A stretch of 64,000 nucleotides of DNA from Escherichia coli (GTDB taxonomy: Bacteria; Pseudomonadota; Gammaproteobacteria; Enterobacterales; Enterobacteriaceae). The notes under the pieces were generated by a model that saw nothing but the letters and a program-made list of their open reading frames with translations, was not told the origin of the DNA and searched no databases. The position numbers and the translations under genes are program-made. The stretch lies in assembly GCF_050920415.1 (NCBI RefSeq), contig NZ_CP169309.1. One strand, given 5' to 3'. Positions 3,244-25,988 of this stretch are shown one piece after another (position 1 is the stretch's first letter; each line of letters begins with the position of its first letter).

Positions 3244-4017
3244 TCAGGCGTCGACTTTATCCAGCGGCCATGAATCAAACAGATAGCCATCAAAATAAAT
3301 ATCGTCAACGTTCGAGAATTCAAGCAGACGTTGCTTCACGTTTTCCAGATGCTGCCACATTGCCAGCTTCGCCGCTCGGGCGTCTTTTTTGATTAACGCG
3401 GCGAGGATCTGTTTGTGATCGCCCAACCACTCTTTGCGATACAGGCTGTCATCCAGATGGCTGTGCAATTGGATCCACATTGGATTGTTTTCCCGCCACT
3501 GCCAGGACTGACGGAATAGCTCCACCAGCATGCTGTTATGCGTTGCTTCGGCAATGGCGAGATGGAACTGCATATCACCGCTTTCGCTGCTACCCGGCGC
3601 GCTGGAAGCCAGTTCACGCTCTTCCAGTTGCAATGCCTGACGCATTTTGACGATATCTTCGCGGGTAGCCTGCAGGGCGGCAAATTCCGCGATGTTACTT
3701 TCCAGTAACTGACGCGCCTGTAACAGCTCAAAAGGACCCGCATCATTGCAAACGTTGGCATCCGGACCGTCTGTGTTCTGGCTGTCTGAGCTATCAAGAA
3801 CATAAATACCGGCACCCCGGCGCACTTCCACCAGCCCTTTGATCTCCAGCATGATCAGCGCTTCACGTACCACCGTCCGCGTGACATCAAGCATTTCTGC
3901 AATTTCACGCTCCGGCGGCAGCCGTTCGCCAGGATTGTACGGCGTCTTTATGATCAGATCGCGGATCATCGCCCCGACTTCCTGGTAAGGTCTTTGCGCA
4001 GAGGTGGCAGATTTCAT
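3244..4017 (-). CDS. uxuR: GntR-family repressor of the uxu hexuronate operon
   Basis: 257-aa ORF with GntR-type winged HTH near the N-terminus (ERLPPEREIAEMLDVTRTVVREAL) and an FCD-like C-terminus. Confidence 0.9.
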   Translation of the reverse strand: MKSATSAQRPYQEVGAMIRDLIIKTPYNPGERLPPEREIAEMLDVTRTVVREALIMLEIKGLVEVRRGAGIYVLDSSDSQNTDGPDANVCNDAGPFELLQARQLLESNIAEFAALQATREDIVKMRQALQLEERELASSAPGSSESGDMQFHLAIAEATHNSMLVELFRQSWQWRENNPMWIQLHSHLDDSLYRKEWLGDHKQILAALIKKDARAAKLAMWQHLENVKQRLLEFSNVDDIYFDGYLFDSWPLDKVDA

Positions 4018-16972: not shown

Positions 16973-17575
16973 CTATAAAACAGCGTGATGCTGTCGTCCT
17001 CTGGCTCTATCCCAGATGCCGTAAAAACGCCCTGCATTGCTGGCGGTATACCAGACAGTATGACGAATATTGCGATGCCCAAGATAATCCTGGATAAGTC
17101 GTGTATCTATTCCCATATTCGCCAAAGCAAAACCACACGAATGGCGTAACATATGCGGATGAATCTCCAGTGATAACCCAGCATTACCACCAGAAGTCGA
17201 GATAATATGGTAAAACTGTTGCCGAGAAAGCGGGTTCCCCTTACGTGATAAAAATACCCACTCGCTCTCAGCATGCGGATAAGAAGTACGTATACTCAAC
17301 CAGTTTTTTAAAGCCTGAACTTCTTTGTTCAATAGCGGGTGCGTTGTTGAAAAGCCTTTTTTTAATCGATGGATATATATACACTTTGCCTTAAGATCAA
17401 TATCCGAAATCCTCAATCGACAAATTTCACTCGCCCGGAAACCATGAATAAAACAAAGCAAAGTCAGACAATAATTACGTGCTGCATGAGGCCCGGTATT
17501 TGCTGCTTTAAGGAGTGACTCGATTTCACTATGGGTCAGGAAGTTCCTTTTTTTGTTATCAGCCTTATTCTTCAT
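16973..17575 (-). CDS. fimB: Tyrosine site-specific recombinase FimB (bidirectional inversion of fimS)
   Basis: 200-aa paralogue of FimE (HPHMLRHSCGF...LGHRNIRHTVWYT), upstream of fimE. Confidence 0.95.
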   Translation of the reverse strand: MKNKADNKKRNFLTHSEIESLLKAANTGPHAARNYCLTLLCFIHGFRASEICRLRISDIDLKAKCIYIHRLKKGFSTTHPLLNKEVQALKNWLSIRTSYPHAESEWVFLSRKGNPLSRQQFYHIISTSGGNAGLSLEIHPHMLRHSCGFALANMGIDTRLIQDYLGHRNIRHTVWYTASNAGRFYGIWDRARGRQHHAVL

Positions 17576-19002
17576 CGTTTTCCCTTATAATTACAGACGC
17601 GCACTAGCTGTGCTGGGTTAGCAATAATCCAACATTTTAATCCTGATTATGTTTATAAAAGCGAACGTTTGCTTAATAACTAACGTAAGTGGACCAGTTC
17701 TTCTGAGTGAACTTAAATGGAGTAGCGATAGTTACTTATAATAACTTTGCCATACAAACGCCATGCTCTTGCATGCTATGTACCTTTATATATTTATCAA
17801 TCTGATACGAATCTAATAATAACCCTCATCATTAATGCAACTAATCTTATCTATATATCATGTGATATGTTCTGTAACAAGTAAAATCAACATAAAAAAT
17901 TCAGCAAAATTTAATATTCGTTCAACTAGCCGTCTCACATATGACATTATTAGTCAACTGCATTTGCCACAAGATGGCTATTTCATGGAACGCAGTAATT
18001 TCTTAGCGTCTATTATCATGCTAATTCTTAGGTCCCTAGCGATTATTCCAGCCTGGTTCGTCAGCTTACGCCATGAGATTGCTACATTCCTTTTTATCAT
18101 GGAGATATGGGGGAAAGCAGGCGACGCTTTTTCATCTACATTCATTGGTAAATATGGCTTTGGTCACTACGCCTTAAACCTTCTTCAATCACAGCTATTC
18201 GCCGGGCGATACGGCAAACAAACTAAGTGAAGCATCATCCTGAAAACACCAATGCGTACTGAACATCAACAAGCCTCTCCTGATCGACTTCAGAAGTGAC
18301 CAGTTACAAGCCACAAACCTGGAAACATATTTCATGATGAGAATTATGCTCAGCCTGATGGCGGGTAAACACTTATTTTCACCACGCTCACTGAGTTAGC
18401 CAGCAAAGGCCTCTTGTTTAGAGAGCAAATAAATTACATATAAAACAAATAGTTAATCAAATATCTTTGATTTGTGAAGGCCATCGTAAGTGTTCGTCTG
18501 ACTTCACATGGCATCTTCTTCATAGAAAAATATAGACATATTTTGTGACACGAATTGCAAATCTGGTTTTGTTATATGGATTGTGTGATTTTTGATCTGG
18601 TATAACAGGTATAAAGGTGTACCGCAGTAGTCAATGAGACTGAGCATCTCGCAATCTATGACAAACATCACTTCAGTCTGAAAGGAATATGAAAATGAGA
18701 TCAACAGACACTCTATTTTATGACTCTGGATAAAATGGATTGAGTAAGTGATATAGCTTACGAACATTCAAATCAATTAAACATCAGAAGAGATTTTATA
18801 CTCAGGTATTTAATCTGGTTCTCTGTTTATTTAAATAATGTGGAAGATAATTTTCACAGGAGACCTTATACAAAAAATATAAAATACAGCTACCAGTTAC
18901 CAAAGACACTATAAGCCTGGCAAAAAATATTACACAACATAAATGCTAATTGTTTATGCGGGCTTTGTATTGCTTTCTGTATCCTACAAATGAGTGAAAT
19001 TT

Positions 19003-19719
19003 ATGAAAAAGGCTAAAATACTTTCTGGCGTATTATTACTGTGCTTTTCGTCACCATTAATTTCTCAAGCTGCGACACTAGACGTACGTGGTGGATATCG
19101 TAGTGGAAGCCACGCCTATGAGACTCGACTCAAAGTCAGTGAGGGATGGCAAAATGGATGGTGGGCAAGTATGGAAAGTAATACCTGGAATACCATTCAT
19201 GATAATAAAAAGGAAAATGCCGCACTCAATGATGTTCAGGTTGAAGTTAATTACGCGATTAAACTTGATGATCAATGGACGGTGCGCCCGGGAATGTTAA
19301 CGCATTTTAGCAGCAACGGCACACGCTACGGACCCTACGTAAAACTGTCCTGGGACGCGACAAAAGATCTTAATTTTGGCATTCGCTATCGTTACGACTG
19401 GAAAGCTTACCGACAACAAGACTTATCCGGTGAGATGTCTCGTGATAACGTTCATCGTTGGGATGGATATGTCACTTACCATATTAATAGTGATTTCACC
19501 TTCGCATGGCAAACGACGCTATACAGCAAACAAAACGATTATCGCTATGCAAACCATAAGAAATGGGCGACGGAAAATGCATTTGTTCTACAATACCATA
19601 TGACGCCTGATATTACGCCATACATAGAATATGACTACCTTGACCGTCAGGGTGTTTATAACGGCAGAGATAATTTATCAGAAAACAGTTATCGCATTGG
19701 TGTGTCATTTAAACTGTAG
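19003..19719 (+). CDS. nanC: KdgM-family outer-membrane channel for N-acetylneuraminic acid
   Basis: 238-aa ORF from MKKAKILSGVLLLCFSSPLISQA with a beta-barrel-like alternating pattern and C-terminal ...YRIGVSFKL. Confidence 0.85.
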   Translation: MKKAKILSGVLLLCFSSPLISQAATLDVRGGYRSGSHAYETRLKVSEGWQNGWWASMESNTWNTIHDNKKENAALNDVQVEVNYAIKLDDQWTVRPGMLTHFSSNGTRYGPYVKLSWDATKDLNFGIRYRYDWKAYRQQDLSGEMSRDNVHRWDGYVTYHINSDFTFAWQTTLYSKQNDYRYANHKKWATENAFVLQYHMTPDITPYIEYDYLDRQGVYNGRDNLSENSYRIGVSFKL

Positions 19720-19738
19720 TAGACAGGAGACAGTCACA

Positions 19739-20845
19739 ATGAATAAAACAATAACGGCGCTTGCTATCATGATGGCTTCATTTGCCGCAAACGCGTCTGT
19801 ATTACCGGAAACTCCGGTGCCATTTAAAAGTGGTACCGGAGCAATTGATAACGACACTGTCTACATTGGTTTAGGTAGCGCAGGTACGGCATGGTACAAG
19901 CTGGATACACAGGCCAAAGATAAAAAATGGATAGCGTTAGCTGCATTCCCTGATGGGGCGAGAGATCAAGCAACCTCTGCATTTATTGATGGCAATCTGT
20001 ACGTATTTGGCGGCATTGGCAAAAACAGCGAAGGCTTGACTCAGGTATTTAATGACGTACACAAATACAACCCCAAAACCAATAGCTGGGTTAAATTGAT
20101 GTCGCACGCGCCGATGGGCATGGCGGGCCATGTGACTTTTGTACACAACGGCAAGGCTTATGTTACTGGCGGTGTTAACCAGAATATCTTCAATGGCTAT
20201 TTTGAAGATCTCAACGAAGCTGGAAAAGATTCAACCGCTATAGATAAAATCAACGCCCACTATTTTGACAAAAAAGCAGAAGATTATTTCTTCAATAAGT
20301 TTCTGTTGTCTTTTGATCCCTCAACACAGCAATGGAGTTACGCTGGCGAATCTCCCTGGTACGGGACGGCTGGTGCAGCGGTTGTGAATAAAGGCGATAA
20401 AACCTGGCTTATTAATGGTGAAGCCAAACCAGGACTACGAACGGATGCCGTATTTGAACTTGATTTCACCGGTAATAATTTGAAATGGAATAAACTTGCT
20501 CCCGTCTCATCACCAGATGGCGTCGCTGGCGGTTTTGCAGGCATGAGCAATGACTCACTTATATTTGCCGGAGGGGCCGGATTCAAAGGTTCACGGGAAA
20601 ATTACCAAAACGGTAAGAACTATGCGCATGAAGGCCTGAAAAAATCATATAGCGCTGATATTCATCTTTGGCATAACGGGAAATGGGATAAATCGGGCGA
20701 ATTATCGCAAGGTCGGGCCTACGGAGTATCATTGCCCTGGAATAATAGTTTATTGATTATTGGCGGTGAAACTGCAGGCGGCAAAGCGGTAACGGATTCA
20801 GTATTGATCTCTGTGAAGGATAATAAAGTCACAGTGCAAAACTAA
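19739..20845 (+). CDS. nanM: N-acetylneuraminate epimerase/mutarotase (Kelch-repeat protein)
   Basis: 368 aa from the internal Met MNKTITALAIMMASFAANA (signal peptide); repeated GG/GH Kelch-like blades; directly follows nanC. Confidence 0.85.
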   Translation: MNKTITALAIMMASFAANASVLPETPVPFKSGTGAIDNDTVYIGLGSAGTAWYKLDTQAKDKKWIALAAFPDGARDQATSAFIDGNLYVFGGIGKNSEGLTQVFNDVHKYNPKTNSWVKLMSHAPMGMAGHVTFVHNGKAYVTGGVNQNIFNGYFEDLNEAGKDSTAIDKINAHYFDKKAEDYFFNKFLLSFDPSTQQWSYAGESPWYGTAGAAVVNKGDKTWLINGEAKPGLRTDAVFELDFTGNNLKWNKLAPVSSPDGVAGGFAGMSNDSLIFAGGAGFKGSRENYQNGKNYAHEGLKKSYSADIHLWHNGKWDKSGELSQGRAYGVSLPWNNSLLIIGGETAGGKAVTDSVLISVKDNKVTVQN

Positions 20846-20909
20846 CGCTTCAGGGCCCCAGTAAAGGGGCCCTACTATCAATTTATCATTTCAATTACGC
20901 GAAAATTAT

Positions 20910-21890
20910 ATGAACGCAATAATATCGCCCGATTATTACTATGTTCTTACCGTTGCTGGTCTGTCTAATGCCATGGCGTATGGCGAAGGACTGCCATTAC
21001 CGGACAGGGAAGATACGCCTCATCCCAGAATTAAACAATTAGCGAGATTTGCGCATACGCATCCCGGAGGCCCGTCATGTCACTTTAACGACATTATTCC
21101 ACTGACTCACTGCCCACACGATGTTCAGGATATGCAGGGTTATCACCATCCTCTGGCAACGAATCATCAAACACAGTACGGCACCGTTGGCCAGGCTCTG
21201 CATATTGCACGGAAATTACAGCCCTTTATTCCTGATAACGCGGGGGTTCTCATCGTTCCATGTTGCCGTGGCGGATCGGCTTTTACTGCGGGCAGCGAAG
21301 GGACATATTCAGAACGGCACGGAGCCAGCCATGATGCTTGTCGTTGGGGAACGGATACCCCTCTATACCAGGATTTAGTCAGCAGAACGCGAGCCGCACT
21401 GGCAAAAAATCCGCATAACAAATTCCTCGGCGTATGCTGGATGCAAGGCGAATTTGACTTAATGACAAGTGACTACGCGTCACACCCTCAACACTTTAAT
21501 CATATGGTTGAAGCCTTTCGTAGGGATCTAAAACAATACCATTCTCAGCTTAATAATATTACTGGCGCGCCGTGGTTTTGCGGCGATACCACCTGGTACT
21601 GGAAAGAAAGTTTCCCTCATGCGTATGAAGCTATTTATGGCAATTATCAAAATAATATTTTAGCCAATATTATTTTCATCGACTTCCAGCAACAAGGTGA
21701 AAGAGGGCTGACGAACGCGCCTGATGAAGATCCGGACGATTTAAGCACGGGATATTTCGGTTCAGCGTACCGGTCACCGGAGAACTGGACGACGGCACTG
21801 CGAAGCAGTCATTTCAGCGCGGCAGCCCGTCGGGGGATTATTTCTGACAGGTTTGTAGAAGCAATTTTGCAGTTTTGGAGCGAAAGGTGA
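20910..21890 (+). CDS. nanS: 9-O-acetyl-N-acetylneuraminate esterase (YjhS)
   Basis: 326-aa ORF downstream of nanM in the same orientation. Confidence 0.8.
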   Translation: MNAIISPDYYYVLTVAGLSNAMAYGEGLPLPDREDTPHPRIKQLARFAHTHPGGPSCHFNDIIPLTHCPHDVQDMQGYHHPLATNHQTQYGTVGQALHIARKLQPFIPDNAGVLIVPCCRGGSAFTAGSEGTYSERHGASHDACRWGTDTPLYQDLVSRTRAALAKNPHNKFLGVCWMQGEFDLMTSDYASHPQHFNHMVEAFRRDLKQYHSQLNNITGAPWFCGDTTWYWKESFPHAYEAIYGNYQNNILANIIFIDFQQQGERGLTNAPDEDPDDLSTGYFGSAYRSPENWTTALRSSHFSAAARRGIISDRFVEAILQFWSER

Positions 21891-22472
21891 GCGGGGAGTT
21901 TATTCATGGGGGATGTCCTTGTCCGTTCCCAAAACAGGCAACAAAAAACAAATGAGATCAAGGTAATATCTCTTCACTTGCAGGCTCGAACAGCAGGCAA
22001 TTGCCAATATAATAATCTGGCACAAGGGTGAAAAACGCGCACCGCATAAACCGTTGTTATTGCTTAAAGATTAGCCGGATGCCTTAATAGACATCCGCGC
22101 CTTTTCGATTATGGCTCGGAAATCTACGAACCTCTGCACAGTTTACTGGAACGTTTTGGACCACAGCGTTCACAGTACCGACCTGATATGCCGTTCTGGC
22201 GATTATAAGGCGACGGATTCTGGCAAATAGACGATGATAATATGCTTAATGATGTTCAAAGAAATTAGGCCATCATTATATTATTGCTTGCATTTTCTTT
22301 CATTCCCAAAAGCACCCGCCATTAATCCCAGGCGCATTATGCAAAGGAAAATGATTAGGTAAACAATAAGATTTATAATCAGGAAAGGCGACTCGCAATA
22401 AAACGCAAAGTCGCCTTAACATTGGTAAAATATGCCCTTTACTACTCCTGTATCATGAACGGCTCATCACAT

Positions 22473-25400
22473 TTAAAGCTGACGTTGATCCAGACTGCTA
22501 TATATTGCCTTTATTTCATTTTTTACGCTTTCGCCACGGTACACCAAAGACGTATCGTATCGTTGATACTTATCTTCCCGTGCAGCACTGAACCAGTTAA
22601 AAGATCCGACACACAGCAGTTCTTCATCCTCAATCACAATTTTGCTGTGGACACGATTAACCAATTTCGTAGCGATACCCATCTTATTGAGCTTTTCAAC
22701 AGCATCATTCAGCAGATGTTTTTTCTCCTGACGCTTATCATCATCGACATGCGCTATATTGCAGTTTTTATCCGTCACCACAGTAATATCAATGCCCCGG
22801 GAACGGGCCAAAGCCATTGATGCCAGAAATCCCGTTTGCTCCATTTTTTGCCAGGATAACCAAGGGGAAATAATCGTTATTTTCTTTTGAGCTCCGGCAA
22901 GAGTCATGTTCAAAAATTCATCATGCTGCTCCACGCCATGCAGCGTTGAAATTTGTGTATGTGCGGAAATTAAATCCTGTCGTTTATGAAACTCAAATTG
23001 CAACGCATTATTATCTGAAGAAAAGAGATATTTTGCCAATAACCCTCGCGGCGAAAATGCGGGCTGCATCTCGATAAGGTCCATATCGCCAAATACCAGA
23101 AAACTATCTTTAGCGCGTGAGACAGCAACATTGAGGATACTGCTGTTGCTATCAAGAAACCTGCCATCTTCATGTTTTGAGTAGACTGGAGAAAAGAGAA
23201 CAATCGCCCTTTCCGCCCCCTGCAAGGAGTGCACAGTCCCCACTGTCAGTGAACCCTCCTCGTCTTTGCCATTAATTTCCAGCTTACGCAATGACGTTTT
23301 GATAGCATTAACCTGCGCCGAAAATGGCGTCACAACACCAACAACTTTGTACAGTGGTTCCCCGTAATGGCGCTCTATATCATCCTTATGTGCCACCAGC
23401 CATGCTGCTATTGTTTCAGCTTCAAGAGGGTTATAACGGCTCCCCCCATTTGGCTTCATGCCTCTACCATCAATATGTAAATATCCCATTGCGGGGAAAA
23501 TCGTCCCTTTTTCCATCCCTCTTTTAGGCTGCAACTTACCGTGATAGCAAAGTGAGTTACAGTAGCCGATGATGTTATTGAAACAGCGACGATGCTCATA
23601 CAGATACATTCCGCGCTCGAACTTGGGATCATACTGGTAGTGAGAGTTAAACTGGGCTACCTGCATTACGCTGCCAGATGCTGCACTTTTTCCAGACCCA
23701 CACACGTGAGTATATGTATTTATTAACTCTTCCTGAGTGCCACCAGAAATAATATTCTCCTCAAGCATATTGCCCATATCAGTGACGGGTAGACAATTCC
23801 AGATTGGAGCTATTTGCTCCGTATCGCCAATCACCAGCGCTTTCTTCGCCAATGCAAAGGAAGCTGCAGCAACCTCCGGGAGTACCTGCCCGGCTTCATC
23901 GACAATCAGTAAATCAGCAAAGTTATATAAATAATTATTATCCGATGTTCTATCGCCACCAAAAGATTTTCTTCTGTTCATATGGTAAGGCAACATGTAG
24001 CAGGTCATCACCACACAAGGAGTAAGTTTCATTCTTCTTAGCCAACGAGCCTCGGCGATAGTTATCCCGGTAATTCCTTTTTCTTTTTGCAAATTATCTA
24101 TAGCTGCCATATCAATCAGCCAACGCCCCTCCCAATAATGGGTCGCTACCAAGAACGCTGGAAAACGAATCTGAGTATCGGCAAGTTCATCCGCTCCTGA
24201 AAGATTCAATTCATCGTCACCTCTGTAACCCAAAGCATAAGTCAACTCACGCCATTGTTTTGCAGCTTCTATTTCGCGTCGGGCTATATCCTTCGCATAG
24301 TTGATGTTCTGTTGGCACTCATCCTGCTCCTTTTGCGTTTTAGCAATCAAACTATCAATAAATTCATCAATATCTTCGGGATAATTTCCCTGGAACGATG
24401 TCATTCTTGTGCCAAACGTAGAGTCCAGGAAGAGGTTAATCTGGTAATGGCGTTTAGTACGAACAGCAGGAAGCCATGACAAAACCGCATACACTAGCGA
24501 CTCATCAGCACGGTATTGCTGCCACTGCTTTTTACCTCTTGTTAAAAGTGAAATTTCATTGCCAATATTGAGAAGACGTGTGTTTTCGTCCTGAAGATAC
24601 TGGTCGAGATTCTCACTGATGGCTCGCTGTTCATGGCGGATATCATTAAGCCTGCGCCATGTGGGTTCGATTTGCTGAAGTTGAATAAACTGTGAAGTTA
24701 AACGTTCATGCAAAAGCGTCACTACATGCTCTGGTGAATTGCACTCTCCAGCTCCAAACGCCACCTCCGCTTTTTCAAGGTAAAATGCCCGGGCTTTTTC
24801 CAGATATTCCTGGGATTCAACGTGGTTAAAAAAATCTTCAGTCTGGTATTTCTTCGCAGCCTCAACCTGACGGCTTTTAGACGGAAAATAAGCGCCATAG
24901 CTTATTACCTCCGGCAACCAACGACCAGCCATTACGCCAAAACCAGTAGAGAAATCTTTTCCAAAGGCTTCAATAATATTGGTGACGGCCTGATTGTTAG
25001 TTGATGTGGCAATAATTACAGGAGGTTCAGCTTGATTAAGTGCGGCTCTAGTCCATTCGGTGGCGATAATAGAAAGCACCAGCGTAGTTTTACCCGTTCC
25101 CGGAGGACCGTTAACAGCGAGCATATCCCCCTGCTGTTGAGTCAGATAATGGCTCAGGGCATCGCGCTGCGCCACTGCCAGCGGAAACTTATCGCCGGAA
25201 TGCCCCAGACGTTCGCAGAACATAGCATTCTTAGCGAGAAGTGGCTCTAGTGGAACCATTTCATTTGAGGCAAAACGCGTTAATAGAGGAACCTTAACCT
25301 GGCTCATCAGCAGATGGTCATACAAAGGCAGGATATGAACACTGGCCCCTACATGCTGGCTAGCTTTAACAATATAACCGTATCCAGCCCGTTCGTATGG

Positions 25401-25988
25401 CTCAGATGTAGCGACCCAATTTCCAGCGACGTTTCTTAAAAGGTTATCTGACTGTTGAAGATAATTTTGCCAATGCTGACGATACCTGGCATGGCGTTCC
25501 GCTTTCTCTTCGTCAGTTTCTTTGTAATGTTCTGGTTGACCTTCATTAATGGTGGCTGTGTTATGCGTAGTTTTGTATTTGTCATATTGCACCAACTCAC
25601 CAATAGAAAAATGACCGGAAGGGAGAGGTTCAAGCAGATCGCGGGGAATAGTGGCTGAAGCGGCAGGAAACAAAAAACCTTCCCTATTAAGAAGAGCGGA
25701 GGTAACCAGTGGCGTAATAATTGCGGGTGCACCTGCCGTTTGCTCTTTGCCATGCTTTACAATGCGGTTCCACACCTGGGGCCGTAACACGACTTCAACG
25801 TTTTTTACAGACTCCCCTTCACCGTCAAAAAATGCCCGAATAGTTTCGTCATCCAACTGCCCTGCGGTGATATTTATCCACCGAATGAATGATTCCGTAT
25901 CTTTACGTGAAAACGTTCCTTTGCCAGATTCGGCGTCAGCTAGGGAGTTGCGCCAGTATGAAGTGAATCCCAATGTATTGCTGTCCAT
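22473..25988 (-). CDS. Large SF1 helicase (Upf1/Dna2-like ATPase core) fused to a C-terminal phospholipase-D/HKD nuclease domain; candidate single-gene defence protein
   Basis: 1171-codon [15 protein letters not shown] Walker A (aa 294-302; nt 25083-25109); LLIVDEAGQ motif II (DEAGQ aa 697-701; nt 23886-23900); [11 protein letters not shown] and [10 protein letters not shown] resembling SF1 motifs V/VI; C-terminal [21 protein letters not shown] = HxK(x)4D...GSxN signature (nt 22596-22649); sits immediately 3' of tRNA-leuX. Confidence 0.8.

Follow-up and report, generated by a model that had tools for sequence, protein, structure and literature searches.

A covarying G/C-rich stem-loop without a U-tract between nanM and nanS of Escherichia coli, a possible 3' boundary of the nanC-nanM message

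Genes and features of the nanM-nanS junction

The window analysed here, a 64-kb stretch of E. coli DNA taken as a whole, carries the sialic acid genes nanC, nanM and nanS in one direction, with fimB divergent from them, an arrangement also found in E. coli K-12 (Table 1). Nearly all related loci have a KdgM-family gene ahead of nanM, the place that nanC holds here. The nanCMS genes are treated as a single NanR-controlled operon (PMC3658417), and a consensus scan found no promoter-like site on the + strand within 20800-20910, which is consistent with co-transcription of nanS and led us to reject a separate nanS promoter in the spacer. The reviews and recent papers on nanCMS that were examined describe neither a hairpin nor an internal terminator separating nanM from nanS.

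Table 1. Features at and around the nanM-nanS junction (positions in the window)
Feature	Position	Strand	Basis or remark
fimB	16973..17575	-	
nanC (KdgM-family sialic acid porin), first gene of the operon	18994..19719	+	ORF; annotated as nanC in MFDS1022581 (L001) and K-12
nanM (N-acetylneuraminate epimerase/mutarotase)	19739..20845	+	NCBIfam NF010730, 601 bits; annotation of homologous E. coli DNA
nanM stop codon, TAA	20843..20845	+	
nanM-nanS spacer, exactly 64 nt	20846..20909		sequence
Stem-loop A-GGGCCCC / AGTAAA / GGGGCCC-T, 22 nt	20852..20873	+	sequence, MFE fold, RNAalifold consensus, compensatory substitutions
5' arm GGGCCCC	20853..20859	+	
Loop AGTAAA	20860..20865	+	
3' arm GGGGCCC	20866..20872	+	
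Closing (eighth) pair A-T	20852, 20873	+	
A/U-rich, G-poor single-stranded spacer, from hairpin to nanS ATG	20874..20909	+	sequence, alignment
nanS (sialate 9-O-acetylesterase), intact, 326 codons	20910..21890	+	ORF list; annotation of homologous E. coli DNA
Candidate operon-end terminator CGGATGCC..ACATCCG, then CGCCTTTTCG	22076..22110	+	inferred
yjhR, intact 1171-codon helicase ORF	22473..25988	-	pseudogene in K-12 MG1655
treB stop codon	58336..58338		
treB-treC hairpin GGGGCGC-AATT-GCGCCCC	58347..58364		
treC ATG	58389		

The spacer between nanM and nanS holds a hairpin of seven G-C pairs and one A-U closing pair around a 6-nt loop, which begins 7 nt past the nanM stop and ends 37 nt ahead of the nanS ATG. 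In the remainder of the spacer the element TATCAATTT is conserved across Escherichia, and strain E69 tolerates a 12-nt insertion there. The nanS ATG has no recognisable Shine-Dalgarno sequence (20895-20912, ACGCGAAAATTAT-ATG), which suggests that translation initiation on nanS may be weak or unusual. Some 190 nt past the nanS stop lies a palindrome that the terminator scan picked out on the - strand and that probably serves the convergent nanS and yjhR transcripts as a shared or bidirectional end.

Fold, tail and chance expectation

In RNAfold, the minimum-free-energy structure of an 80-nt segment is the hairpin (-18.9 kcal/mol, z = -3.4), and none of 200 shuffles was equally stable. Taken alone, the hairpin reaches -17.6 kcal/mol in the window and -21.0 kcal/mol in its K-12 allele, and E. 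coli alleles range between -17.6 and -21. Sequence and fold thus bear out an earlier note made from the sequence, which had placed a GGGCCCC-AGTAAA-GGGGCCC hairpin right after the nanM stop. The note had also seen no T run behind it, and the tail that follows the stem (ACTATCAATTTA / ACUAUCAA) indeed has just two T among its first eight positions. The consensus terminator scan made no call at this hairpin, and its tail scored 0.61 against 4.38 for the terminator of a related locus described below (L147), these scores serving as a relative index only. The formula behind them is that of d'Aubenton-Carafa and colleagues from 1990.

The 64-kb window holds two perfect all-G/C hairpins of 7 bp with loops of 3-8 nt, where dinucleotide shuffles predict 0.29, and the presence of such a hairpin somewhere in the window is unremarkable (P about 0.24). 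The significance of the nanM hairpin is therefore established by comparative data and not by window statistics: it is not a chance occurrence because it is placed in a 64-nt spacer after a stop codon and, above all, because it is conserved. The sole other hairpin of this kind in the window lies between treB and treC, 8 nt past the treB stop and 24 nt before the treC ATG. Like the nanM hairpin, it is a perfect 7-bp all-G/C stem without a T-run, ahead of a co-directional gene in a sugar-catabolic operon; it differs in its unrelated sequence, its 4-nt loop and the clear Shine-Dalgarno sequence that follows. Its occurrence underlines how ordinary this class of structure is.

The 78 nt downstream of the stem contain 16 C and 7 G. 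This bias ranks only at the 89th percentile of same-strand 78-nt windows, and A and T predominate in the spacer, which falls short of establishing a rut site there; the strongest C-over-G region of the operon lies at 21040-21120, within nanS.

Several other identities were considered and set aside. The hairpin is a single-copy element, with a median of one site in each of the 5036 complete E. coli genomes that have it and one match at up to two mismatches in the 64-kb window, and a covariance model built from its orthologues found no further sites in about 200 kb of fetched sequence. A REP/BIME or other dispersed palindromic repeat is ruled out by this copy number and by the lack of a REP consensus. 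An Rfam scan of 17000-24000 at E values up to 10 returned chance matches only, among which the single overlap with the hairpin was astro_FSE (13.9 bits against a gathering score of 70, E = 9.4). A terminator on the antisense strand was rejected as well: being palindromic, the stem folds equally on the - strand, but the tail there (UGAAGCGUUAGUUUU) has no proximal U-run, and the alleles that carry a G-U pair, described below, are unpaired on that strand.

Hairpins after nanM in related loci

Gene order across related loci indicates that nanC-nanM is a conserved module whose downstream gene varies, with a hairpin at the module's 3' edge. In one nanC-nanM-nanS locus (L020; NanM 71% identical), where a SASA-domain gene 66% identical to nanS occupies the nanS position, nanM is followed by an unrelated 9-bp hairpin, AGCCCGGAG-ATAT-CTCCGGGCT, which stands 5 nt past the nanM stop and about 8 nt ahead of the called nanS start and has no T-run. 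A more distant locus (L024, 59% identity) has a 13-bp hairpin between nanM and a sialidase autotransporter gene, and in two further loci (L019, an enterobacterial contig with NanM 77% identical, and L148) the hairpin after nanM precedes a yjhB-like MFS transporter gene. The picture is less regular elsewhere: the position after nanM holds just a weak A/U-rich fold in L017, a Salmonella enterica serovar Eastbourne contig; an Aeromonas locus (L021) has a weak and distant fold (-6.3 kcal/mol, 43 nt past the nanM stop); and the hairpin of L146 is not adjacent to the nanM stop. The Salmonella contig has, at 3607-3700, an extra G/C hairpin between nanM and the yjhB-like gene (CCCACCTCCC-AGG-GAGGTGGG) that is absent from L019, and its called MFS start, which overlaps the nanM stop, looks mis-annotated.

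The tails of these structures differ with gene context. Hairpins between nanM and a following gene have one to four U in the first eight positions, and the tails that were scored reach 0.6-1.0. The nanM gene of L147, by contrast, ends its operon and faces a convergent gene; its hairpin is followed by UUUUUGUU, with U at seven of eight positions and a score of 4.4, a textbook terminator. A U-tract that is present when nanM is terminal and missing when a co-directional gene follows looks like the result of selection for read-through, and it is the contrast with L147 that argues most strongly for a functional absence of the U-tract, polymerase being meant to continue. The judgement of the earlier note that the nanM-nanS hairpin is unlikely to be an efficient intrinsic terminator is upheld by the scarcity of U in its tail, by the negative scan, and by the orthologous and analogous hairpins before co-directional genes, which have no U-tract either.

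The same observations weigh on the foremost rival explanation, a weak or partial intrinsic terminator or attenuator at which a fraction of polymerases would release at the imperfect tail UACUAUCAAUUU, perhaps with NusA or NusG, so that nanS transcription would be set directly below that of nanC-nanM. The strength of the stem equals that of genuine terminators, some U is found in the distal tail (AAUUUAUCAUUU; CUACAUUUUAUUUU in L019), and Dar and Sorek considered that hairpins of this kind might terminate intrinsically but inefficiently, with Rho as backup (PMC6061677). With only two or three U in the first eight positions, however, with tail scores far below that of L147, with the scan negative, and with the U-tract missing in every examined lineage that has a co-directional downstream gene while present where nanM is terminal, we regard attenuation as unlikely, at odds of roughly one to four.

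Conservation, covariation and strand

The hairpin is present in 5035 of 5426 complete E. coli genomes (~93%); the K-12 36-mer around it is found exactly in 3253 genomes, with one difference in 1504 and with two in 278. Sampled E. coli alleles vary at the outermost pair and at the first position of the loop, which is A or G. A 1-nt deletion in the ST131 allele leaves an 8-bp stem, though a weakened one, a double deletion in L031 likewise weakens the stem, and the allele of RIVM and CH459 has one G-U pair within it. Larger changes are matched on both arms. The stem reads GGGCTCC/GGAGCCC in strain E69, in a gut-metagenome contig (L029), in a second E. coli nan locus (L016) and in E. albertii, where the closing A-U is in addition replaced by C-G; it reads GGGCCTC/GAGGCCC in SCPM-O-B-8794 and GACTCTC/GAGAGTC in L019.

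With manual registration of the alignment, on which the full count rests, compensatory double changes occur at six of nine pair positions, and all seven core pairs are free of disrupting substitutions. In the counts made by alignment tools the proportion of paired cells is 93-94%, against 20-59% in controls in which the 3' partners were slid by one to three columns, and between 0 and 2 of 500 shuffles reached the observed covariation score. These tool counts are conservative, as MAFFT and Infernal both align L019 one column off, and the covariance model missed the diverged hairpins of L020, L023 and L024; RNAalifold recovers the helix independently. A NanM scan of genome contigs yielded four loci, all from Escherichia, and in a metagenome DNA-pattern scan 28 of 120 stretches were true nanM ends. 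Across homologues, base pairs are kept by compensatory substitutions, as is looked for in a structured RNA under selection. A larger conserved fold that would sequester the nanS start was tried by RNAalifold over -40..+50 and rejected: covariation was confined to the hairpin, and the other helices consisted of invariant coding sequence.

The wobble alleles indicate which strand is concerned. The G-U pair of RIVM and CH459 and a U-G pair in L023 are paired in the + strand RNA and become A-C mismatches in the antisense RNA; these alleles pair in the + strand RNA alone, which points to the sense transcript as the molecule under selection. The junction thus bears a sense-strand RNA structure that is conserved by covariation and has no U-tract in every intercistronic context examined.

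The esterase gene seems to be frequently lost. In several E. coli strains nanS is annotated as a pseudogene or as a partial gene, and it has decayed in E. albertii and in L023, with nanC-nanM and the hairpin intact (L004, L005, L006, L008, L009, L014, L023). Mobile elements cluster at the nanM-nanS junction: in E. coli fS149a (L007, about 330-349) an IS1 copy sits 2-3 bp past the hairpin on its 3' side, and IS2 interrupts the nanS start in MFDS1022581 (L001 3139-4367), in which the spacer is 100% identical to that of the window. One paper also reports a transposon inserted experimentally into the spacer between nanS and nanM (PMC5010248). In E. whittamii and Escherichia sp. E1V33 (L012 4118-4200, and L013) a deletion runs from within the 5' arm, after CAGGG, to about codon 27 of nanS; nanS fragments alone are left, and the deletion junction forms a new A/U-rich inverted repeat, TTTTCAGG..CCTGAAAA.

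The hairpin could in principle be an evolutionary relic, the ancestral terminator of a two-gene nanC-nanM operon whose U-tract eroded after a downstream gene was joined and which would now be functionless. Such a history would agree with the conserved nanC-nanM core and its differing downstream genes, with the canonical terminator after the terminal nanM of L147, and with a hairpin that outlasts the degradation of nanS. In a neutral relic, however, substitutions that break pairing should build up as fast as changes in the flanking spacer. The compensatory double substitutions at six of nine pairs indicate instead that selection on pairing continues, and in L019, L020 and L024 the stem has turned over entirely with pairing and position kept, so that we hold a functionless remnant to be rather improbable, with perhaps one chance in seven.

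A possible protective hairpin at the end of the nanC-nanM message

The reading that we favour, with a probability of about one half, is that the hairpin is a selected sense-RNA stem-loop which is read through by polymerase and acts as a barrier to 3' exonucleases, uncoupling nanC-nanM from nanS. The structure would belong to the nanC-nanM-nanS mRNA and mark the 3' boundary of the nanC-nanM module. With no U-tract to release it, RNA polymerase would mostly pass the hairpin into nanS. Transcripts cut in the A/U-rich spacer, or ending diffusely downstream through the action of Rho near the start of nanS, where translation would be poor and G is scarce, would then be trimmed in the 3'-to-5' direction by PNPase or RNase II back to the G/C stem. 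The outcome would be a discrete and stable nanC-nanM mRNA, and a nanS level that is lower and separately set. Endonucleolytic cleavage or Rho action downstream is made plausible by the A/U-rich, single-stranded spacer together with the missing Shine-Dalgarno sequence of nanS.

We infer that the stem stops exonucleases, lets polymerase through and affects the nanM:nanS ratio. The earlier note had offered an RNA stability or processing element, or a partial attenuator, as what the hairpin could be; covariation, pairing of the wobble alleles in the sense RNA only and the match to a known class make this proposal the best-supported reading of its putative function. The hairpin persists where nanS has decayed or been deleted (E. 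albertii, L023), so its role would not lie solely in setting the nanM:nanS ratio, and its survival there fits protection of the nanC-nanM 3' end better than pure ratio-setting. Counting against the favoured reading, several E. coli alleles, those of ST131 and L031 among them, weaken the stem.

In the one E. coli Term-seq table searched, and in the TERMITe supplements, no 3' end falls in the corresponding K-12 spacer (4537595-4537658); the Term-seq cultures were not induced with sialic acid and the operon was repressed, hence that table is uninformative here. The only 3' end nearby in the data of Adams et al. 2021 is antisense, at K-12 4536716(+), inside nanS and near its 3' end, about 20 nt downstream of the stop codon of ythB, a small antisense gene annotated in K-12 (4536597-4536695).

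A more elaborate reading, which we consider improbable, at about one chance in ten, would make the hairpin a portable boundary element of the nanC-nanM cassette that renders the expression of whichever accessory gene is joined to it conditional, be it nanS, a yjhB/nanX-like transporter or a sialidase, for example by translation-dependent Rho attenuation just past the stem. The accessory function would then be made under particular states of sialic-acid supply or growth and not at a fixed ratio. Least credible of all is a palindrome that acts as DNA (bound by a dimeric protein, or forming a cruciform or a recombination hot spot) in place of an RNA element: the arms do form a perfect inverted repeat whose symmetric changes would preserve a DNA palindrome too, an IS1 insertion lies 2-3 bp away in one strain and the E. 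whittamii deletion ends inside the hairpin, but the G-U alleles break the DNA palindrome and not the sense-RNA helix, stems have been replaced wholesale between lineages with pairing kept, unlike a sequence-specific operator, and the site lies within the operon, far from the promoter region controlled by NanR and NagC.

Relation to known systems and significance

The protective stem-loop that we favour has well-characterized counterparts. Where an E. coli mRNA does not finish at an intrinsic terminator, its steady-state 3' end is precise and lies directly after a stable stem-loop, which has no U-rich tail, protects against PNPase and RNase II, and is followed by sequence with more C than G (Dar and Sorek 2018, PMC6061677). 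The nanM hairpin resembles that class in being stable and G/C-rich, with terminator-like energy, no U-rich tail and a position just past a coding region; in the excess of C over G downstream (16 vs 7) the likeness is weak. It differs in lying between two genes of one operon, whereas theirs stand at the ends of transcription units, and in that their class is defined by mapped steady-state 3' ends and by dependence on PNPase and RNase II, whereas the nanM hairpin was recognised by sequence, predicted fold and conservation. It resembles canonical intrinsic terminators in its stem, which is G/C-rich and in the range of 7-9 bp, in its short loop and in standing a few nucleotides past a stop codon, but it does not have their U-tract of 7-8 nt. 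An older parallel lies within an operon: in work of Newbury and colleagues from 1987, a REP element between malE and malF reportedly gives differential mRNA stability. The nanM hairpin likewise stands directly 3' of the upstream cistron in a polycistronic sugar-utilisation operon, and would be predicted to stabilise the upstream segment relative to the downstream one, but unlike that element it is single-copy, spans 22 nt and has no REP consensus.

The nanM hairpin is in this sense an unannotated example of a well-described and common class, useful for annotation and not surprising. The locus nonetheless offers a clean comparative example in which one hairpin position has a U-tract when nanM is terminal and none when a gene follows, a contrast that illustrates the interconversion of terminators and read-through protective hairpins proposed by Dar and Sorek (PMC6061677). 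If the favoured reading is true, nanCMS would not be a uniform unit: the message for the porin and the mutarotase would be stabilised and delimited apart from that for the esterase, which would bear on how E. coli balances sialic acid uptake against de-O-acetylation.
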